This document shows positions 4,845 to 18,993 of a stretch of DNA of 64,000 nucleotides, piece after piece. The stretch covers positions 19,538 to 83,537 of the forward strand of contig JALNLM010000002.1 of the NCBI GenBank assembly GCA_023254095.1. The letters run 5' to 3'. The position numbers were made by a program, and so were the translations under genes. Source of the DNA: Candidatus Geocrenenecus huangii (lineage in GTDB: Archaea > Thermoproteota > Nitrososphaeria_A > Caldarchaeales > Wolframiiraptoraceae). A model generated the notes under the pieces. The model saw only the letters and a program-made list of their open reading frames with translations. It was not told the origin of the DNA and searched no databases. How positions within the stretch are numbered: the first letter of the stretch is position 1; each line of letters opens with the position of its first letter.

Positions 4845-4978
4845 CGCCGGGGGTGGGATTTGAACCCACGAGCCCCGTTTCCCCAATAATTAATGGGGCA
4901 TCGGCTAACTCTTCTCAGTCTGACCATGCTTATTATTGATCTCGAGGCCGACCCTCTACCTGGCTAAGGTACCCCGGC
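4845..4978 (-). tRNA. tRNA-Ser (anticodon CGA) with two introns: about 34 nt in the anticodon loop and a probable 14-nt mini-intron in the variable arm
   Basis: Read by hand on the minus strand: acceptor GCCGGGG/CCCCGGC with discriminator G; D-arm; anticodon stem UCGGC/GCCGA with loop CUCGAG|A; T-arm GUGGG-UUCAAAU-CCCAC. The gene is 134 nt against about 86 nt expected for mature tRNA-Ser. Removing AUCAAUAAUAAGCAUGGUCAGACUGAGAAGAGUU at position 37/38 and AUUAAUUAUUGGGG from the variable arm leaves a canonical Ser variable arm, UGCCCCAAACGGGGCUC. Confidence 0.7.
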
Positions 4979-7387: not shown

Positions 7388-7963
7388 TCAGGATTCTATA
7401 GAATCTTCCGGAGATTGGCAGGTTGCCGAAGATATATTCTCTTCTGGATAATCTGTCTTGCATATTTGTTTTATCCTCTCAACCCCTCTAATGGAATCAA
7501 TATACTCTACAACTATCCTTGGAATGTATTGTTTCCAGTCTTCATCTTTAATCATCTTTTTTCTGATGAGCGTCCCTATCACTTCTTCTCTTCTATATAG
7601 TTCAATTTGTTTAACTTGGTATCCCGCATCGGCGAACAATCTTTGAACTAGAGGATTATTAGAGTATACGATATCAAATTTTGGCACAAAAGTCTTTACT
7701 CTTGAAACCCATAAAGAATGTTCACCGATATCTGGTATAGGTACGATAATTACTTTGTCTAATGATATGTTCTCTTCTTTTAGCATCAATCTAATCATTT
7801 CAATTCTCTCTCCGGCTGTAAAAGGATTCTTGAAAGTGTAACTATATTGAGCGCTTCCCACTACTATATTCAATTCATCACACTCTTTCAATATGTTCTT
7901 GATTGCCGTTAAATGACCTATATGTGGAGGCTGGAATCTTCCTACAAATAACCCACGCCTCAA
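7388..7963 (-). CDS. nadM: Nicotinamide-nucleotide adenylyltransferase (archaeal NMNAT)
   Basis: 191 aa. GLFVGRFQPPHIGH is the (H/T)xGH nucleotidyltransferase motif in the archaeal NMNAT context. The apparent start is TTG at 7961-7963, with a TATA-like element about 30 nt upstream. Confidence 0.85.
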   Translation of the reverse strand: MRRGLFVGRFQPPHIGHLTAIKNILKECDELNIVVGSAQYSYTFKNPFTAGERIEMIRLMLKEENISLDKVIIVPIPDIGEHSLWVSRVKTFVPKFDIVYSNNPLVQRLFADAGYQVKQIELYRREEVIGTLIRKKMIKDEDWKQYIPRIVVEYIDSIRGVERIKQICKTDYPEENISSATCQSPEDSIES

Positions 7964-7993
7964 AGACCACCAAGTTAATGGGGTGAGCCCAGT

Positions 7994-8005
7994 ATATTTA
8001 TATTA
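7994..8005 (-). promoter_or_regulatory. TATA-box-like element (TAATATAAATAT) upstream of nadM
   Basis: An AT-rich TATA-like sequence lies about 30-40 nt upstream of the TTG start. This matches archaeal promoter geometry for a leaderless or short-leader transcript. Confidence 0.3.
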
Positions 8006-8098
8006 ACATAAGAAAAGGATAACTATTCAAACGGATGTTGAATTATCTTGCTCCTCTACGGGTTCCATCTGTTCAACATTGTGCTGGGGAACTTCATC

Positions 8099-9169
8099 TC
8101 ACCGTCTCTTAAGACCTATCCCCTCGATAGTTATTGTTGCAGGTTCCCCCTCAACTCCATCCACCTTTATCTTGGCATTAGTTAGAATTCTACATAGCTC
8201 TAAGCTGGTGATAGTATGTCTTGTAAGATTCGTTACTCTGTATTGGGATATGCCTTCTGCAAGACATGCCCATATCACTAACTGGTCTCCCAGATGCTTA
8301 TCAACAGGAGCGTTTCTACTCAATTCATCTAGCAGATCTTTTGCAGCTTCCTCTCCAATCCTTTCTGAGGGAACTCCTTTCTCACCTAACCTATCTACAC
8401 CAATTACGGTTCCATCCTCTGTTTCTGCTAAAAGTATTATTCCACATCCAGGGTCTACTGAGCATCTAGGATTGTCAGGTTGGAGAGCCTCCCTAATTAT
8501 CTCTACATCGTAGCCTTCTCTTCTCAAGATATTTTCTGCTGTGTTCGCCATCCTTTCAACAATATGTCCTGGAAGCCTACAGCTATAGCTTAGCCCACTT
8601 ATCTTTCTAACCTTTCTGATTTCAACCAGTTTTAAAGGTTTGAGAACATCTACCGGAATAGAGCTGGCTCTAACTATTCCCCCACCTCTCGGATAGAATC
8701 CTCTCTTGACAAGCTCGACATTGAATCTTCCACCCATCTTCTCTATTATAGGCAGGAGGACTTGTTGAAGATACTCGACGGGCGGGGCCATGGGATTATT
8801 TGTTCCGCCTCTAAGCTCTACGTTAACAGGTTTTGAAGCATAACACATTGTAGGCATCAAGCTCTGAAGCATTAATGTAGTGGATCCAGCTGTGCCCGCA
8901 TCAAAATTTAGGAAACCCCCCTGAGGTCTCTTTGAAGGCTTAAAGAATATTTCCAGAGACCCTACAGATAGACCTGAGACCTCCGCTGAACATAGTGCTC
9001 CCACCGCCTTAACAGCCGTTAAATGTTGAGGTCTTAGTCCAGGGTTACTCCTCTTGACTCGAATATTCTTTATTCGGACTGGCTTAAGTAAGACCGCAGA
9101 TAACGCTACGGCGTTTCTAAGTATCTGACCTCCTCCTTCACCCATCGATCCATCGATCTCAATGAACAT
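8099..9169 (-). CDS. rtcA: RNA 3'-terminal phosphate cyclase
   Basis: 356 aa. The N-terminus IEIDGSMGEGGGQILRNAVALSAV is the conserved RtcA signature. The full-length RtcA domain architecture is present. Confidence 0.85.
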   Translation of the reverse strand: MFIEIDGSMGEGGGQILRNAVALSAVLLKPVRIKNIRVKRSNPGLRPQHLTAVKAVGALCSAEVSGLSVGSLEIFFKPSKRPQGGFLNFDAGTAGSTTLMLQSLMPTMCYASKPVNVELRGGTNNPMAPPVEYLQQVLLPIIEKMGGRFNVELVKRGFYPRGGGIVRASSIPVDVLKPLKLVEIRKVRKISGLSYSCRLPGHIVERMANTAENILRREGYDVEIIREALQPDNPRCSVDPGCGIILLAETEDGTVIGVDRLGEKGVPSERIGEEAAKDLLDELSRNAPVDKHLGDQLVIWACLAEGISQYRVTNLTRHTITSLELCRILTNAKIKVDGVEGEPATITIEGIGLKRR

Positions 9170-9224
9170 CTCTGTGTAATTCCTTTGACTTCTTGTTTTT
9201 AAGCATAATTCGTTATTGCAATTC

Positions 9225-9234
9225 TATATTAAAT
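9225..9234 (+). promoter_or_regulatory. TATA-box-like element (TATATTAAAT) upstream of the SAM hydrolase gene
   Basis: It lies about 24 nt upstream of ATG 9258. The spacing fits an archaeal leaderless mRNA. Confidence 0.3.
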
Positions 9235-9257
9235 ACCAAGGTTGCAGTATTATTTTT

Positions 9258-10076
9258 ATGATGCTTGGCCCGAGTAATAGACGTTTAGTTGCTTTTATGA
9301 CGGATTACGGTTTAAGGGATACGTATGTCGCCCAGGTAAAAGCGGTGATATTAAGTTATAGGATCGATACAGTGATAATCGATGTTACACATGAAGTTGA
9401 ACCATTCAACGAGCTCGAAGCCGCATTCTTGCTTACAACTTATGTTCAGTATATGCCTCCTGGAACAATCCATCTATGCATAATTGACCCATATGTGGGT
9501 GGAATGAGAAAACCAATAATAATACAGACATCTAGAGGTGATCTATTCGTCGGACCAGATACTGGGGTCATGATCCCGGCCGCAGAACAGTTAGGAATAG
9601 TGTCTGCCTATGAGATTGACGAATCCAATCTTCCTAGGAGGACTGGTGAAACCTTTCATGGTAGAGATGTTTTCGCACACGTCGTAGGTATGATAGTTTC
9701 AGATGTGCCTCTGAGTCGGTTGGGTAGAGAACTAGTAGAATACAGAAAGTTCACGTTACCCAATCCTGTAAAGAGGGAAGATTACATTGAAGCGACTGTA
9801 CTACACGTTGATAGATTTGGAAACATAATAACTAACCTTAAACCTTTAGACATAGGAATAGTTTTCACAGACATTATCGAGATTTCTACCTTCACGGGCT
9901 TAGCGGTTAACTGTCCATTCGTTAAGACTTACAGCGAAGTAGTAGAGGGCTCTTTTCTGACAACTATCGGGGGGTCAGGGTACATCGAAATCTCTAGAAA
10001 TATGGGGTCTGCTAATGAAGAACTAAGACTTAGAGCTGGAGATAAAATAAAAGTTAGGGTGGTTAAAAACATTTAA
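9258..10076 (+). CDS. S-adenosyl-L-methionine hydroxide adenosyltransferase (SAM hydrolase, DUF62; fluorinase/chlorinase-like fold)
   Basis: Family N-terminus ...MTDYGLRDTYVAQVKAVIL... and C-terminal beta-barrel domain. The track ORF begins at TTG 9216, but a TATA-like box at 9225-9234 sits inside that extension. I prefer ATG 9258, which is leaderless relative to the TATA, or ATG 9297. Confidence 0.65.
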   Translation: MMLGPSNRRLVAFMTDYGLRDTYVAQVKAVILSYRIDTVIIDVTHEVEPFNELEAAFLLTTYVQYMPPGTIHLCIIDPYVGGMRKPIIIQTSRGDLFVGPDTGVMIPAAEQLGIVSAYEIDESNLPRRTGETFHGRDVFAHVVGMIVSDVPLSRLGRELVEYRKFTLPNPVKREDYIEATVLHVDRFGNIITNLKPLDIGIVFTDIIEISTFTGLAVNCPFVKTYSEVVEGSFLTTIGGSGYIEISRNMGSANEELRLRAGDKIKVRVVKNI

Positions 10077-10096
10077 GAAGTGGGGAAGAATGTTTT

Positions 10097-10723
10097 ATGG
10101 TTAGAGTAGGTGGTCGTATGTCTTTCCAATATCCTTACCCTGGAGCTACGACTCTCGGCATAAAAGGTAGAGATGCGGTGGTATTAGCTGCGGAGAAGAG
10201 GCTTACTTATGGATACTTTGTTGTGAGTAAGACTGTCAGAAAGGTTTTCCAAATTACATCAAAGATTGGTGCAGCATGCGCAGGCTTCATAGGCGACATG
10301 CAGAACCTTATCCGTGATGCTCAAGCAGAGATTAATCTGTATAGATTCATGTATCAGAGAGAACCTGAAGTTAGAACAGTAGCCAAAGTACTTTCAAACT
10401 ACTTATTCAGTAGTAGGTTCTTCCCATATCTTGCTGAGACAATTGTGGGTGGATTCGATGAAACAGGAGGCCATATACTAGTATTAGACCCATTAGGCTC
10501 AATAATTGAAGATGATTATGCAGTAGTCGGCTCGGGTGCAGAGATAGCCATCGGCGTAATAGAGACATCCTACAAACCAGAAATGAATACAGATGAATTA
10601 AGAGAGCTCGCAGCTAAAGCCATAAGAGCTTCTATAGCTAGAGATGCAGCAAGCGGTAATGGTATAGATATATTGATAATAACCAACGATGGTGTTAAAG
10701 CATTAGAGACGGTCACCTTATAG
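10097..10723 (+). CDS. psmB: Proteasome subunit beta (with propeptide)
   Basis: 208 aa. A propeptide is followed by G|TTLGIKG, with the catalytic Thr after the processing site. Ntn-hydrolase proteasome beta motifs are conserved. Confidence 0.85.
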   Translation: MVRVGGRMSFQYPYPGATTLGIKGRDAVVLAAEKRLTYGYFVVSKTVRKVFQITSKIGAACAGFIGDMQNLIRDAQAEINLYRFMYQREPEVRTVAKVLSNYLFSSRFFPYLAETIVGGFDETGGHILVLDPLGSIIEDDYAVVGSGAEIAIGVIETSYKPEMNTDELRELAAKAIRASIARDAASGNGIDILIITNDGVKALETVTL

Positions 10724-13238: not shown

Positions 13239-14321
13239 ATGGTTAAATTTAATTCGCTACAACGATATACGGTGAAAGCTGTAGTATTCGCTGCTGGATT
13301 AGGTAAAAGGCTTAGACCTCTCACAAATACGAGACCCAAGCATCTTCTACCTATCAGTGGTAAACCGATTCTGAGAAGAATCCTCGAATCTCTTCTACTA
13401 AATGGCATCGAAGAAGTCGGTATAGTCGTCTCATATATGCCTGACCTAATCATTGAAGATGTGAAGAATTACGGGTTAAGCATGAAGGTCGAATGGATTC
13501 ATCAGAAAGAACCTCTAGGAACAGGTGATGCTCTCAGAGTCTGCGAAGAATTTCTATGTAACGAAGATTACTTCATAGTTGTTTACGGAGATATAACTTT
13601 AAACACTGTAATTCTCGGAAACATTATCCGATTCTTCAATGAAAATATTTGTGATGGAGTAGTCGAAGGAGTATTAGTTGAAGATACGCTTAGATTCGGT
13701 AGAATAATTTCTAGAAATGGTAGACTAGAAAAGATAGAAGAAAAAACAGCTGGTGGCCCTGGATTAGTGAATACTGGTCTATACATCCTTCCACATGATG
13801 CATTAGAGTTTTCCAGACAGATAAACCTATCTAGAAGAGGTGAATACGAGTTAACGGATGTCTTGAACATCCTTGTTTCTAGAAATTACGAGATACTGGT
13901 TCATACTACTGATCAAGATTGGTGGATGGACATAGGTTCTCCGAGGGATTACCTGAAAGCAAACATTAAGAAATTCATAGAAGAGTATGGGAACAGAGTA
14001 ATATGCAATTCTGAAGTAGGTGAAAAAGTAGTCGTGAAACCTCCGTCCATGATACTTGAAGAAGTCGAAGTAGAGAGAGATACTGTAATAGGTCCGAACA
14101 CATTTATAATGAAGAATGTAAGAATAGGCTCGAATACTATAATAGAAAACTCCATCCTCCTCGAAGGGTCCATCATCGGTAGAAGCTCAGTTCTGAGGAA
14201 TGTGATTATAGGAGAATATGTAAAGATAGGCGACAAAGTGCATGTCGAAGGTGGCCAAGAAGTATTAGTCATCTCTCCTAGAACGGAAATAGGAGACAGC
14301 AGCAAGATCAGCATGGTCTAG
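13239..14321 (+). CDS. Sugar-1-phosphate nucleotidyltransferase with C-terminal left-handed beta-helix (GlmU/GCD1-like bifunctional-type)
   Basis: KAVVFAAGLGKRLRPLTNTRPKHLLPI is the GxGxRL nucleotide-binding motif. The C-terminal hexapeptide repeats (IGPNTFIMKNVRIGSNTIIENSIL...) form the LbH domain. The start is probably the GTG at about 13273 (M/VKAVVFAAG). Confidence 0.75.
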   Translation: MVKFNSLQRYTVKAVVFAAGLGKRLRPLTNTRPKHLLPISGKPILRRILESLLLNGIEEVGIVVSYMPDLIIEDVKNYGLSMKVEWIHQKEPLGTGDALRVCEEFLCNEDYFIVVYGDITLNTVILGNIIRFFNENICDGVVEGVLVEDTLRFGRIISRNGRLEKIEEKTAGGPGLVNTGLYILPHDALEFSRQINLSRRGEYELTDVLNILVSRNYEILVHTTDQDWWMDIGSPRDYLKANIKKFIEEYGNRVICNSEVGEKVVVKPPSMILEEVEVERDTVIGPNTFIMKNVRIGSNTIIENSILLEGSIIGRSSVLRNVIIGEYVKIGDKVHVEGGQEVLVISPRTEIGDSSKISMV

Positions 14322-15003
14322 TCTCAGCACGATATGCCTCCTCCATCACCGCATAAGCGATCGATCTCGCCAACTTAAGTGGTTCAGGTATCCTACCAGA
14401 TACCGTATACTTATTTACTAGATCGAGAGCTTTATCCACATCTAATCCCACAGCTCTAAGATAGACTTTGAATCCATTCTTGTTAACAAGCTCGATTCTA
14501 GGTCCATTCTCTTCGTATACTTTGAATCTCTCCTCCCAATCGTCTGGGAAATACTTGATAAAATATTCTCTGAGACCGGTTGATGGATAATAGGTTAAGC
14601 ATATGGATGGTAGACGTGTTTCTCTATGTAATCTATTCAGGTCCACTACGTTAAACCAGCTAATAATACATCCATTAATTATTAATGCAGATATGTCTTC
14701 TCTCTCTAGTCTATGATACATTTCGAGGATGGAATCGGTTACATCCATTCCGCCTATCTTACATCTTCCCAAGACAACTCCATCAACTAGTAGATCGCTC
14801 CTCATTACGACTCCAGCTAGAAAAGCATACTGTCCAGCCCCTCTCCTATAGCTCTCAGCTATCCCCAGAACCCTGATTGCTTTCTTTTCTAGACTCAGCC
14901 TCAACAAACTCCCTAGTGAATACTCGTTAAAGGATGCTATAATTATTTTATCTCTAGAGAGAAGTAGTTGGAGCGGAACTTTAAGGATTGAATTGTTCTC
15001 CAT
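14308..15003 (-). CDS. DUF99/UPF0215 family protein (conserved archaeal protein of unknown function, predicted RNase-H-like fold)
   Basis: 231 aa. IRVLGIAESYRRG...FLAGVVMRSDLLVDGVVLGRCKIGGMDVTDSILEM matches the DUF99 pattern (vlGiDDg...v.v.R...dG.....i.vDG.D.T). It overlaps the Hjc-like gene by 23 nt. Confidence 0.55.
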   Translation of the reverse strand: MENNSILKVPLQLLLSRDKIIIASFNEYSLGSLLRLSLEKKAIRVLGIAESYRRGAGQYAFLAGVVMRSDLLVDGVVLGRCKIGGMDVTDSILEMYHRLEREDISALIINGCIISWFNVVDLNRLHRETRLPSICLTYYPSTGLREYFIKYFPDDWEERFKVYEENGPRIELVNKNGFKVYLRAVGLDVDKALDLVNKYTVSGRIPEPLKLARSIAYAVMEEAYRAETRPC

Positions 15004-15280
15004 CTTCCAAGTTTATGAAATGTATTCTTCGTTCGTACTTCTTCCTCAAGGCCAATATCGGTTTACCTGATGTGATCTTAGCCATCTCAATCAGCTTAGA
15101 CCTATCTTTATCGCTGATCCTCGAACTGTATTTACATTCGATCAAGAGGATTGACCCCTTCTTTAAAGCAATCAAGTCTAGAGGTTTACTTCTAGCAACT
15201 CTAACCGTTAGCCAGCCCTTATCCTCTAATATTCGTCTAACTTCCCATTCGAATCTTCTACCTTTCCTATAACTCAACAC
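14981..15280 (-). CDS. hjc: Compact Holliday-junction-resolvase-like PD-(D/E)xK nuclease (Hjc/Hje family)
   Basis: 99 aa. KGRRFEWEVRRILEDKGWLTVRVARSKPLDLIALKKGSILLIECKYSS aligns motif-by-motif with Hjc (KGSxxERxLxxxLRxxGFxVVRxxxSG...DIIALKNGxxLLIExKS), including the catalytic D...E.K. It sits between the Hef-like helicase and DUF99 on the same strand. Confidence 0.6.
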   Translation of the reverse strand: MLSYRKGRRFEWEVRRILEDKGWLTVRVARSKPLDLIALKKGSILLIECKYSSRISDKDRSKLIEMAKITSGKPILALRKKYERRIHFINLEDGEQFNP

Positions 15281-15308
15281 TACAACACCGTCATATGGAT
15301 CTCCTCTA

Positions 15309-17603
15309 TCATAGTTCCTTGATTACTCCATGTAGACGGAGATGTAGTCTCCCATCTATACGTACAAGCTTCCCAACGACAATGTATTCAGCCTTCTTTT
15401 TCAAAGATATTAATTCATCATTTAACTCAACAGGTATCACCGCTCTCCACCTATCATTGACTAAAACCGCAATTTTTCCCGGATAGAGTTCCTCGACACA
15501 TATTTTGAATCTCTTCAGATCTCCAGCTATCTCTATGGAATTTTTTAGTTTTTCTTTGACGAAGGGGTGAAGCCTCCCACATTCCTCGAATATTCTCCGA
15601 GATTTCAATAGTTTCTTCAAAGCTTTCTCGATCTCGCTAGCATTATATCCATCATGGATTAATTCTTCTACAAGGAGGTTTCTAGGAAAGCCTCGATCTC
15701 CCATCTTGAGTATTCTCTTATAGATTATCTTGGAAAGCTTCAGTAAACTCGTCTTCGGTTTTATGCTTGTAGAAGTAATCTGTTCAAACCACTCCATATA
15801 CCTATTCGCATGATGCCTCATATATTCGTCTTTTTTGAGAACTTCTTCAAGTTTTTCTCTCCAGCCTTCTTCGAGACAGCTCTTAGAGAAGCTTAAGTTA
15901 GAGTTCTTTTCAGACACATTATTCCCGTCGACTTCTCCGCAAGTTTCTGGAAAAGAATTTCTAAAGACTGATCCAGTATAATCTGTTAGATTCTTTTGCT
16001 TAATTTCTTGGTTTATCTTCTCTAATATGTTTTTTGTTTTCTTAACTTTCCTGTAAGCTGATTCAAGATAAACTTCATCAGACGTATTTTCAGCTACGAG
16101 TATCACGCATCTTCCGGTTCTTAGCCTACCAGTTCTCCCCCTTCTTTGAATAAATCTTATCTCTGAAGTTATCGGTTCATAGAATACCACTAGGCCGCAT
16201 TGTGGAATATCTAGCCCCTCTTCTCCAATACTCGTCGATACGAGAACCTGTATCTCCCCATCATTAAATCTCTTCAATGTCCGGAGCTGTTCTCTCTGAC
16301 TCATATAGATGAAGTTCTTTTCTTTTCTCTGTCCAACAAACACTTCTACCCTAAATCCTCTATCTCTCAGGATATCCACTAAATGTTCTGCCGTATCTCT
16401 ATACTGAGTAAAGACTATCACTCTTCCATTCGGCTCATCGTTAAAGTATTTCTTTAACTCTTCAACCAGTGCAGGAATTTTCGGATGTTCTTCTACTTCT
16501 TTCTCAACCATATTCATTAGTAATCGGAATCTCGGATCTATCACGAGCTTCCTATGGGATTTTTTCTCCAACGTTATAGAGTTCTCCAAGAATTTCCTAA
16601 GTATATGTGCTCCTTGAGATAGTAGAAGCTCTAATTCATGGAGGAGTATAAGAGCGATATTCTGTAGAAGTAGTAGATTCCATGACAAGCCTCTAGCATA
16701 CTTGTTTTTCTCAAGCTTAATCTTTTCGCGTATTTTTTCTCCGACCTCAAGTAGTTCTCTTCTAGATATGTGGCCACAGTCTTTATTGATCAACCCAGCT
16801 TCTCTAAGTTGCGCCAGACAATCTTCAAGCATCTCTCTAATCAAGTTGGCAATCCTTTGATAGCTTACAGGAGGTTCTATCATCTTATATTCTATCTTGA
16901 TATTGTGAATATATGGGGCAACATCTCTATCGTATTCTGAACGGTAGATTATATTCTCAATGAATAGTTTATTTACTATCTCTCTAACTTTGTTAGCATC
17001 TGACCCAGGCGAGGCCGTTAAAGCCAGTATACGGGGATTCTTGCATGAGCTTACATAATGTTTAGCGACCTTCGTATATGCGTACTCTTTCCTAGCTCTA
17101 TGAGCTTCATCAAATACGATCAAGCTGAAATTATCCAGACTCAGCCCATCTTCTAAATCATTCTTGACTACTTCAGGCGTAGTGAAGAATATCATGACAT
17201 CTCTGCTTCTCCACCACAGCTTCCTCTCTTCTGGAGCTACATCGCCGGTCAAGACCCTCAATTGATGTGCTTCTAGTCTTAAGAGTTGAGCAAACTTTTC
17301 TTTATGCTGGTTTACTAGAGGCTTTGTAGGGGCCATGACTAGAATCCTACAGTTGGGCTGAATGTACAAATAATAGGCGGAGACGTATACAGCGATAACT
17401 GTCTTACCTAGAGCCGTAGGTAGCACAACCAATGTATTCCGCCCAATAGATGATTCAGCTATCTTAACCTGGTATTTCCTGATCTCTATCTTCTCTTTTC
17501 GAAGGAGAGGGTTCTCCAATATTATCGATGAACTCATGATATCCGAGCTGTCCATATGATTCGACCTATTTCCAGTGTCTTTCCCCATATCTTCTCGTAT
17601 CAT
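15309..17603 (-). CDS. Hef/FANCM-like SF2 DNA helicase (DEAH, with helical insertion) carrying a unique C-terminal domain of about 200 aa and no ERCC4 nuclease
   Basis: 764 aa. Motif I VVLPTALGKTVIA; motif II DEAH (VFDEAHRA); motif III TASP; motif VI QRRGRTGR. The insertion domain between the RecA lobes is as in Hef. I see no ERKxxxD nuclease motif in the C-terminal region. Confidence 0.75.
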   Translation of the reverse strand: MIREDMGKDTGNRSNHMDSSDIMSSSIILENPLLRKEKIEIRKYQVKIAESSIGRNTLVVLPTALGKTVIAVYVSAYYLYIQPNCRILVMAPTKPLVNQHKEKFAQLLRLEAHQLRVLTGDVAPEERKLWWRSRDVMIFFTTPEVVKNDLEDGLSLDNFSLIVFDEAHRARKEYAYTKVAKHYVSSCKNPRILALTASPGSDANKVREIVNKLFIENIIYRSEYDRDVAPYIHNIKIEYKMIEPPVSYQRIANLIREMLEDCLAQLREAGLINKDCGHISRRELLEVGEKIREKIKLEKNKYARGLSWNLLLLQNIALILLHELELLLSQGAHILRKFLENSITLEKKSHRKLVIDPRFRLLMNMVEKEVEEHPKIPALVEELKKYFNDEPNGRVIVFTQYRDTAEHLVDILRDRGFRVEVFVGQRKEKNFIYMSQREQLRTLKRFNDGEIQVLVSTSIGEEGLDIPQCGLVVFYEPITSEIRFIQRRGRTGRLRTGRCVILVAENTSDEVYLESAYRKVKKTKNILEKINQEIKQKNLTDYTGSVFRNSFPETCGEVDGNNVSEKNSNLSFSKSCLEEGWREKLEEVLKKDEYMRHHANRYMEWFEQITSTSIKPKTSLLKLSKIIYKRILKMGDRGFPRNLLVEELIHDGYNASEIEKALKKLLKSRRIFEECGRLHPFVKEKLKNSIEIAGDLKRFKICVEELYPGKIAVLVNDRWRAVIPVELNDELISLKKKAEYIVVGKLVRIDGRLHLRLHGVIKEL

Positions 17604-17715
17604 CTACATCTCCTTGCTTGTTTTCCCTTAACTACGACTTCTGCTAACAATACACTGACCAGCGTATAGGCTAGCCCCGATAAAAATATTTCAGACCATG
17701 ATGAAAGTGGAGAAG

Positions 17716-18993
17716 TTATGATTTTCTTTCCTTTCTTATTCTACTAAGTATCTCTTGAGCTTTATCAAGCCTTACAGCTTTCTCTCTAACCATCTCTTCT
17801 GCAACTAAGTCTATCTCTCCTCCTACCGCTCCCGCCATCACGGCTATATTCTTCGCATGGAGAGACATGTGTCCAGCCTGTATTCCTTCAGCGGCCAATG
17901 CTCTGAGAGCAGCGAGATTCTGAACCAGTCCAACCGCTCCTATAATTTCTGCTAATTCTTGACTTGTCTTGACTCCCAATATCTTTAGCGATATCTTTGC
18001 TAGAGGATGAGTCTTGGTTGCTCCTCCAACAATTCCTACAGCAATAGGCATCTCTAGAGAACCATATAGATAGCTTCCATCAGTCTCCCATCTACTAAGA
18101 GGCCTATATCTTCCGTCTCTAGCTGCATAGGTATGAGCTCCCGCTTCTACTGCTCTCCAATCATTTCCGGTAGCTATAACGACGGCATCCACGCCATTCA
18201 TTATACCTTTATTGTGGGTTGCAGCCCTGTATGGATCAGCTTCTGCAAAGGCCCAGGCCTCCATGATTCCTTCGGCGACTTCTCTTCCTCCTACTGCTTC
18301 AACGGGAATTTTCGTCCATGCTCTAACAAGTCTACGATCAGCTAGATTCGATATTATTCTTAACCTAAAGTATCCACCTGCTATCGAGGCGAGCCTCGGA
18401 GCTATCGTCTCAGCCATCGTATTTACCGCATTTGCTCCCATAGCATCTCTAACATCTACTATTAGATGAACTATCAGCATGACTCCGCTTCTAGTCTCCA
18501 GAATTCTTGCTTCAAGGTCTTTTGCTCCCCCTCCAAGCCTAACCAGCACGGGGTCACATTGATTGGCTAATTCTAGGATCTCATCTTTCCTCTTTAGTAT
18601 TTCGAGTCTCGCTATAGCGGGCTGTGGAACTTTTACTAATTGTATCTGGCCTATCATGTATGGTCCTGTGCTAGAAGTATATACTCCACCACCTTCTCTA
18701 GCCATTCTGGCAGCATTAGATGCAGCAGCCACGACAGAAGGCTCTTCAATAACCATTGGTATAAGGTAATCTCTACCGTTTATGAGGAAGTTTACCGCTA
18801 TGCCTAAGGGGAGCTCATAGGTTGAAATTACATTCTCTATCATTCTATTCGCAATCTCTATGTCTAGAGCGCCATGCCTCTTCAATGAGCCGATTTCATC
18901 GCTAGTCAAATCTGCAAACTCTGAAACGATCTTTAGTCTCTCTTCTATGCTAAGTTTGTAAAAACCAGAAATTCTCGAACTTCTCCTACTCAA
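17716..18993 (-). CDS. hmgA: 3-hydroxy-3-methylglutaryl-CoA reductase (class I, archaeal)
   Basis: 425 aa. ENVISTYELPLGIAVNFLINGRDYLIPMVIEEPSVVAAASN, DAMGANAVNTMAE and GTVGG are conserved HMGR catalytic-domain motifs. Confidence 0.9.
   Translation of the reverse strand: MSRRSSRISGFYKLSIEERLKIVSEFADLTSDEIGSLKRHGALDIEIANRMIENVISTYELPLGIAVNFLINGRDYLIPMVIEEPSVVAAASNAARMAREGGGVYTSSTGPYMIGQIQLVKVPQPAIARLEILKRKDEILELANQCDPVLVRLGGGAKDLEARILETRSGVMLIVHLIVDVRDAMGANAVNTMAETIAPRLASIAGGYFRLRIISNLADRRLVRAWTKIPVEAVGGREVAEGIMEAWAFAEADPYRAATHNKGIMNGVDAVVIATGNDWRAVEAGAHTYAARDGRYRPLSRWETDGSYLYGSLEMPIAVGIVGGATKTHPLAKISLKILGVKTSQELAEIIGAVGLVQNLAALRALAAEGIQAGHMSLHAKNIAVMAGAVGGEIDLVAEEMVREKAVRLDKAQEILSRIRKERKS

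Follow-up and report, generated by a model that had tools for sequence, protein, structure and literature searches.

A compact Hjc-type nuclease and a nuclease-less Hef-type helicase as possible facultative partners in hot-spring Caldarchaeales

Introduction

Euryarchaeal Hef, as found in Pyrococcus furiosus and Haloferax volcanii and related to eukaryotic FANCM/Mph1, combines a superfamily 2 (SF2) helicase core and a Hef-specific helical insertion with an ERCC4 nuclease and an HhH2 domain. Caldiarchaeum, like Thaumarchaeota, carries the ERCC4-like helicase (COG1111) and the ERCC4 nuclease on separate genes (Nunoura et al. 2011, PMC3082918). The hef and hjc genes are synthetically lethal in H. 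volcanii (Lestini 2010, as cited in PMC3905845), where, as far as the cited accounts go, Hef and the junction-cutting nuclease Hjc form parallel alternative pathways implicated in stalled-fork rescue, with no gene linkage described (Lestini, Duan & Allers 2010). Here we describe a locus in which members of these same two families are neighbours, with a helicase that itself lacks a nuclease. It lies in a 64,000-nucleotide (nt) stretch of the genome of Candidatus Geocrenenecus huangii (contig JALNLM010000002.1, positions 19,538 to 83,537; hereafter the window), in which a Hef-type helicase gene is followed by a gene for a 99-amino-acid (aa) Hjc-family nuclease, which we call mini-Hjc, and by a gene of the former DUF99 family.

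DUF99 proteins cut DNA 3' of deoxyuridine, and the family has been renamed Endo_dU (Li et al. 2024, PMC11585767); the haloarchaeal Endo_dU gene adjoins that of UDG (PMC11585767). Proteins identical to the 99-aa one are encoded in metagenome-derived genomes of Candidatus Geocrenenecus, which places the window there. The source organism (JZ-1.bins.116, contig set JALNKX) was recovered from a 75.6 °C spring, has a 1.6-Mb genome of 40.8% GC and is classified as Thermoproteota; Nitrososphaeria; Caldarchaeales (supplement of PMC9246946). It is thus an aigarchaeon (Caldarchaeales/"Aigarchaeota") and not a crenarchaeon in the strict sense, as a first-pass annotation of the sequence had taken it to be. 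The supplementary tables of the same paper on Wolframiiraptoraceae hold no Hjc/K03552 annotation. We find that the helicase and mini-Hjc are neighbours in two different gene arrangements, that Endo_dU belongs to only one of them, and that the helicase has repeatedly decayed at the locus at which we first met the pair.

Results

A stand-alone Hef-type helicase beside a compact Hjc-type nuclease

The features at the centre of this analysis are the following (window positions):

15309..17603, minus strand: stand-alone Hef/FANCM-type (COG1111) SF2 helicase, 764 aa, ATG start (open reading frame (ORF) list, Pfam, NCBIfam, PDB 1wp9)
16041..17507, minus strand: helicase core, residues 33-521, two RecA-like domains and the Hef-specific helical insertion (1wp9 alignment; PF21210)
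15312..15761, minus strand: conserved C-terminal domain of the helicase, residues 615-764 (family conservation; fold assignment tentative)
14981..15280, minus strand: mini-Hjc, compact Hjc-family PD-(D/E)xK nuclease, 99 aa (GTG 15280) or 98 aa (TTG 15277) (Pfam, AF2, Foldseek)
14308..15003, minus strand: Endo_dU (formerly DUF99/UPF0215), longest ORF 231 aa with ATG start; the start used by relatives is TTG 14904, giving 198 aa (PF01949, 2qh9)

All three ORFs are intact and lie head to tail on the minus strand, and the packed, co-directional array at 14308-17603 that had been reported earlier was reproduced in the ORF list, with a gap of 28 nt between helicase and mini-Hjc and, when the longest ORFs are used, an overlap of 23 nt between mini-Hjc and Endo_dU.

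The helicase carries the Pfam domains DEAD, RNA_helicase_helical (PF21210, residues 256-360, E 2.3e-11) and Helicase_C, and its residues 33-521 match the structure of the P. furiosus Hef helicase (1wp9, E 6e-110). Motifs I, II, III and VI are intact (GKT 66-68, DEAH 165-168, TASPG 196-200 and QRRGRTGR 486-493). The NCBIfam Hef profile (NF010337) covers the protein only over positions 5-526 of 781, that is over the helicase part, and scores 547 bits against a cut-off of 610. Beyond residue 560 or so we found no family match and no ERCC4 Pfam hit, and the ERCC4 signature ERK-x3-D was not found in any ORF of the window. The reading of this protein as a Hef-type helicase that lacks the nuclease therefore stands. 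The same condition holds for all 120 of its 120 best homologues (690-865 aa; Nitrososphaerota, Bathyarchaeia, Hadarchaeales), none of which has ERCC4, and since separate helicase and nuclease genes were published in 2011 (PMC3082918), a Hef without nuclease is the known state of the lineage and not a peculiarity of this locus. The split of Hef that the first-pass annotation had presented as new had thus been described before: the window helicase shares lineage and architecture with the stand-alone COG1111 helicase of C. subterraneum and Thaumarchaeota and belongs to a widespread nuclease-less family.

Where euryarchaeal Hef has its ERCC4 and HhH2 domains, the window helicase has a different, conserved C-terminus of about 150 aa. 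Most of the best 120 homologues align over 94-100% of the query, and therefore have this region in common with it; its 150 residues are recognisably kept even in Bathyarchaeia. This C-terminus is a trait of the nuclease-less family and not of this locus. A profile built from 20 sequences of the domain gave only marginal winged-helix matches in the PDB (4ham, E 0.0096; the winged-helix domain of MCM4), and its AlphaFold2 (AF2) model, computed from a three-sequence alignment, was poor (pLDDT 53), so that the weak OB/S1-type matches it returned in a fold search (best E 3.7e-3) are a hint and not a result. We tentatively model the region as a winged helix followed by a five-strand OB-like β-domain that would replace ERCC4/HhH2 of euryarchaeal Hef and would probably bind nucleic acid. 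A word-indexed protein search with this domain alone returned just two fragments, both of them pieces of frameshifted helicase genes. Neither the conserved C-terminal domain nor a link to an Hjc-like gene is described by Nunoura et al. (PMC3082918).

The protein encoded 28 nt downstream matches Pfam Hjc (PF01870) over profile positions 1-88 of 93 with 51.9 bits (cut-off 21.1; E 7.5e-14). Its residues E11, D35, E48 and K50 align to the catalytic E9, D33, E46 and K48 of P. furiosus Hjc; the four are invariant in 17 homologues of 91-106 aa and are still retained where identity has fallen to about 60%. AF2 modelled the protein with confidence (pLDDT 90.2, pTM 0.83), and the 27 best PDB matches returned by Foldseek are all Hjc or Hje (E 1e-6 to 1e-4; query-normalised TM 0.62-0.80). 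The Hjc fold and a complete E-D-E-K catalytic set are thus present in the 99-aa protein, as had been proposed from the sequence, and the protein shares with archaeal Hjc/Hje (1gef, 1hh1, 2wcw, 1ob8, 2eo0) the PD-(D/E)xK fold and the basic N-terminal 'YRKG' segment; the alternative start at TTG 15277 would give the beginning typical of the family, 'MSYRKGR'. It differs from them in size: canonical proteins have about 120-145 aa and are some 25-45 residues longer, mini-Hjc lacks the C-terminal part (at least 22 residues of P. furiosus Hjc), and compared with the P. furiosus protein its loop after strand 3 has 4 residues fewer. It also stays below the cut-off of the NCBIfam Hjc equivalog NF040854 (32 versus 70 bits).

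Comparison with two congeners pointed to purifying selection on all three genes, with dN/dS of 0.04-0.07 for mini-Hjc, 0.12 for the helicase and 0.09-0.12 for Endo_dU, values that are rough as dS is saturated. Mini-Hjc is therefore a real gene under selection. Using the mini-Hjc family profile and P. furiosus and Sulfolobus solfataricus Hjc as queries, we found no second Hjc in the six-frame ORFs of the window. Short proteins of this kind are common: an exhaustive HMMER scan (E ≤ 1e-3) collected 2,993 Hjc-like clusters at 50% identity, and among the best 150 of these most are 90-120 aa long, with canonical Hjc (e.g. of Methanocaldococcus) scoring among the best short proteins. A subset of 220-360 aa (P0150, P0159, P0173, P0195, P0217, P0232) carries 130-270 aa of additional N-terminal sequence, followed by a C-terminal Hjc domain.

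The pair occurs in two gene arrangements

In Geocrenenecus and close relatives within the Caldarchaeales the genes are ordered HMG-CoA reductase > [helicase] > mini-Hjc > Endo_dU < NTP-transferase (architecture A). In the window the HMG-CoA reductase gene (17716..18993, minus strand) lies 112 nt upstream of the helicase, and an NTP-transferase/hexapeptide gene (13239..14321, plus strand) converges on Endo_dU, the two 3' ends sharing 14 nt (14308-14321); the convergent layout is retained in all relatives. Mini-Hjc stands beside Endo_dU in 10 of 10 distinct loci of this architecture, and the helicase is intact in four of nine lineages (G. huangii, G. arthurdayi, G. sp. J15 and G. dongiae). Unrelated housekeeping genes are, however, conserved across the flanking 20 kb as well, and because they are conserved equally, gene order within architecture A is uninformative on function. 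The gene-order check hence gives no support to the three-gene repair module proposed earlier, as Endo_dU accompanies mini-Hjc in a single clade in which HMG-CoA reductase, NTP-transferase and other neighbours are syntenic too.

The closest outgroup helicases (810-865 aa, 45% identical to that of the window and with the same C-terminal domain) sit in a differently ordered, co-directional cassette (architecture B). It reads: a 120-aa protein in some form of the cassette, mini-Hjc, a 72-aa zinc-ribbon protein, a topoisomerase (Topo) IA-like protein (567 aa), DUF7557, a 110-aa protein, the helicase, a 118-aa protein, a DUF87/HerA-like ATPase and a 308-aa winged-helix (wHTH) protein (L030:346-8792 and L109:183-8890; also L040, L048 and L060; L numbers denote loci). 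No family was matched by the 110-aa and 118-aa proteins. The mini-Hjc of this cassette has 101 aa and is about 55% identical to that of the window. A metagenome scan for mini-Hjc gave 77 loci which, merged with those found earlier, made 65 distinct ones: 10 of architecture A, 25 of architecture B and 30 others. Seven distinct metagenomic B loci include the helicase (L030, L040, L042, L048, L051, L055 and L060), and the arrangement was also present in a genome assembled from metagenomic sequence (MAG) that belongs to the sister genus (L109, Wolframiiraptor sp. EX4484-121), where the cassette is interrupted by an inserted type IIG Eco57I/MmeI-like restriction-modification (RM) gene. Architecture B never included Endo_dU, and no other mini-Hjc or orthologous helicase that we examined had it as a neighbour.

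With one such helicase per 1.6-Mb genome, chance would place a given gene within ±10 kb of it in only about 1% of cases, and the pairing of helicase and mini-Hjc in two arrangements across an archaeal family is therefore unlikely to be due to chance. The earlier proposal thus survives in reduced form, as a link between helicase and mini-Hjc that recurs in a second, independent gene arrangement and leaves Endo_dU out.

Unlike canonical Hjc/Hje, many relatives of mini-Hjc sit in contexts that resemble mobile genetic elements (MGEs). Among the neighbours of distant mini-Hjc genes are a DNA methylase (L077), a serine recombinase (L022) and, in L064, both a PLD nuclease and a HerA-like ATPase; in L071 a tyrosine (phage-type) integrase gene split by an intein that bears a LAGLIDADG homing endonuclease (7812-9893) lies directly upstream of mini-Hjc (9944-10342), and in L011 mini-Hjc is embedded in a virus-like array of small ORFs. 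Within cassette B the Topo-like protein matches phrog_13226 (1.8e-63) and the DUF87 ATPase a terminase-like PHROG (1.9e-22), and the cassette contains or adjoins a TFB paralogue and an RM gene. Three scans of IMG/VR, whose queries were the mini-Hjc alignment and the 110-aa and Topo-like proteins of cassette B, returned no relatives, so that a viral origin of the cassette is unproven. We rejected a reading as a defence system, as PADLOC gave only generic partial SF2/HerA matches and nothing for mini-Hjc or Endo_dU.

Two loci have features of their own. In the Methanomethylicota relative of mini-Hjc (L022:997-1284), which adjoins the serine recombinase gene and one for a 927-aa AAA+/Lon-like protein, E-C-R replaces the catalytic E-x-K. 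In a Nitrososphaerota MAG, genes of a eukaryote-like ubiquitin system (E2 UQ_con, ubiquitin and a JAB deubiquitinase; L031:1-1597) are separated by a few kb from a cassette of DUF7557, a 109-aa protein and helicase, which adjoins an IS605-type TnpB gene.

Endo_dU, gene starts and putative promoters

The third ORF matches PF01949 with 191.3 bits (gathering score 32.7; E 1.3e-56) and PDB 2qh9, AfuEndo_dU (E 2.6e-14). By the motif definitions of PMC11585767, it keeps motif III (G-D-T, here G85-M-D87-V-T89) and has the basic residue R213 at the functionally important position of AfuEndo_dU H166 (motif VII). Its score against the haloarchaeal NCBIfam equivalog is below the cut-off (154 versus 200 bits). 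The protein is a clear member of the Endo_dU family, and cleavage at deoxyuridine is predicted; its neighbour is mini-Hjc, in contrast to UDG in haloarchaea. With the family characterised in 2024 (PMC11585767), the functional hint for DUF99 that had been drawn from its neighbours is superseded.

Stop codons close the Endo_dU frame just upstream of a TTG that opens 'M-RLSLEKK' in all seven relatives examined (7/7), and for this reason the window gene likely starts at TTG 14904 (or 14907), which would give 198 aa and a spacer of about 76 nt to the Hjc stop codon, compared with 54-83 nt in relatives. The 23-nt overlap is probably an artefact of calling the longest ORF. The gap in front of mini-Hjc is likewise not general: the spacer to the helicase measures 81-86 nt in relatives, and 28 nt is peculiar to G. 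huangii. A TATA-like box, ATAGATTTATCTT, is conserved about 35-45 nt upstream of mini-Hjc in relatives (L013:9918-10000, L014, L016, L035, L036 and L007) and is gone from the window spacer (15281-15308). From this comparison we infer that a deletion of about 55 nt in G. huangii alone took out the box and left the 28-nt spacer, and the helicase and mini-Hjc are probably co-transcribed in this species. The operon-like tightness first noted for this array is a derived, species-specific state, since relatives have longer spacers with boxes of their own. Two further candidate boxes, both recognised in the sequence, lie in the window:

14937..14951, minus strand: TATA-like A/T-rich box ATAAAATAATTATAG, about 35-45 nt upstream of the TTG at which relatives start Endo_dU
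17680..17691, minus strand: TATA-like box AAATATTTTTAT, within the 112 nt that separate HMG-CoA reductase from the helicase

A box like the former stands at the same place before Endo_dU in L007, L009, L014 and L020, and L013, L009 and L026 share the latter motif upstream of their helicase genes. In most relatives all three genes have a conserved TATA-like box of their own. A scan for bacterial-type promoters and terminators, which does not apply to archaea, gave counts at shuffled expectation.

Elsewhere in the window, Rfam placed a tRNA at 4845-4978 (minus strand, 134 nt, 44.9 bits), presumably intron-containing; ARAGORN found no tRNA anywhere in the window.

Helicase decay and unlinked homologues

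Several observations weigh against a partnership of helicase and mini-Hjc, or at least limit it. Contrary to the expectation of a conserved helicase at the locus, three of the nine lineages with architecture A have a frameshifted or eroded copy and two have none. One of these lineages is represented by four independent assemblies (L016:7746-9936, L024:4398-6588, L025 and L037, from GTDB MAG, JGI, Logan and ENA data), in each of which the pseudogene has the same two frameshifts, near residues 404 and 489 of the query, and because they are identical in all four they are real and not sequencing errors. The gene is broken at multiple points in L019/L039, only scraps of it are left in L015, L035 and L036, and in L007/L018 and L020 it is missing and mini-Hjc directly follows HMG-CoA reductase. 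The helicase is thus dispensable at this locus. Mini-Hjc and Endo_dU, on the other hand, are intact in every lineage with architecture A whatever the state of the helicase, and since mini-Hjc persists wherever the helicase has decayed, it does not depend on it.

The linkage is also incomplete elsewhere. Three B loci with adequate flanks (L045, L052 and L058) have no helicase, nor was one found in those more distant mini-Hjc loci, from among the 30 others, that have good flanks (0/5), and neither Hjc nor Endo_dU adjoins orthologous helicases of 41-47% identity (L027, from another lineage, and L028, from Bathyarchaeia). Architectures A and B may moreover descend from one ancestral linkage, which would count as one event and not two, and the promoter boxes were recognised by their A/T-rich sequence alone. 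The association is therefore facultative, as the helicase repeatedly decays and genes of the two families mostly lie apart.

Discussion

We favour the view that the nuclease-less helicase and mini-Hjc are facultative partners and that Endo_dU is a bystander, and give it about an even chance (roughly 0.5). The main competitor, which we consider on the unlikely side, is that the three are independent housekeeping genes (the resolvase of the lineage, an ordinary stand-alone Hef homologue and a uracil endonuclease) held together by inherited synteny and functionally uncoupled. It is well served by architecture A, in which a whole 20-kb neighbourhood is syntenic across the clade and gene order carries no signal, in which most relatives have a TATA-like box for each gene, and in which loss or breakage of the helicase in five of nine lineages left the other two genes unaffected; distant orthologous helicases, too, adjoin unrelated genes. 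What it does not account for is that mini-Hjc and a helicase of the sister clade come together again in a differently ordered cassette at no fewer than eight loci, that of the Wolframiiraptor MAG included (at least 8). A functional coupling of all three proteins as a split machine for fork processing or repair of branched DNA, in which, for example, Endo_dU would nick at uracil ahead of the fork, the helicase would remodel it and Hjc would cleave, appears very doubtful to us. All three proteins act on DNA, their genes are co-directional and tightly spaced in G. huangii, and Endo_dU is the constant neighbour of mini-Hjc in architecture A; against this, that adjacency is restricted to a block with equally conserved unrelated flanking genes, Endo_dU is absent from architecture B and from all other mini-Hjc and orthologous helicase loci examined, the 23-nt overlap vanishes if the gene starts at the TTG shared with relatives, the partner of Endo_dU elsewhere is UDG (PMC11585767) and the helicase is dispensable.

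The MGE-like surroundings of many mini-Hjc genes could alternatively mean that the locus is an eroding remnant of a mobile element, a replication-recombination module of a plasmid or virus that was inserted beside Endo_dU, with the helicase decaying and mini-Hjc domesticated or not yet lost. The patchy and pseudogenised helicase would fit such a history, as would the contexts of the distant genes in L071, L077, L064, L022 and L011, the PHROG matches of the Topo-like and DUF87 proteins of cassette B and the TFB paralogue and RM gene in or beside it. The window locus itself, by contrast, has no integrase or att-like repeat, with only short chance repeats around helicase and mini-Hjc; both genes have a GC content of 0.39, compared with 0.40 for the window, and so no compositional anomaly; mini-Hjc is intact in every lineage with architecture A, keeps its catalytic residues and is under strong purifying selection in the genus of the window (dN/dS 0.04-0.07); and the three IMG/VR scans were without relatives. 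We hold this origin to be quite improbable. A bolder form of the partnership, in which mini-Hjc would serve as the trans-acting nuclease of the nuclease-less helicase, a two-gene analogue of Hef with PD-(D/E)xK in place of ERCC4, and in which the pair would travel in a mobile cassette exchanged between elements and chromosomes of hot-spring Caldarchaeales, is in our judgement unlikely as it stands.

If helicase and mini-Hjc are facultative partners, then by analogy with Hef and Hjc the helicase would remodel or branch-migrate stalled forks or other branched DNA, and a mini-Hjc dimer would cut the four-way junctions that result. Endo_dU, a neighbour by synteny only, would act separately in uracil repair by nicking 3' of deoxyuridine. 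The pairing would be shared with the variable, MGE-resembling DNA-processing cassette of Wolframiiraptor and hot-spring metagenomes. Such an association is in keeping with the way Hef and Hjc interact genetically in Haloferax, and any coupling between the two proteins is non-essential, as the helicase decays repeatedly.

All components of the locus belong to known families and a split Hef has been documented, and the locus itself is for that reason unsurprising. Modestly new are the large and little-noticed population of Hjc-like nucleases of about 100 aa and the finding that one of them, mini-Hjc, is linked repeatedly, in two gene arrangements, to a Hef-type helicase without nuclease. Should helicase and mini-Hjc co-operate, these archaea would offer a natural experiment on the coupling of Hef/FANCM-type fork remodelling to junction cleavage, one that would bear on the redundancy of Hef and Hjc known genetically in Haloferax.

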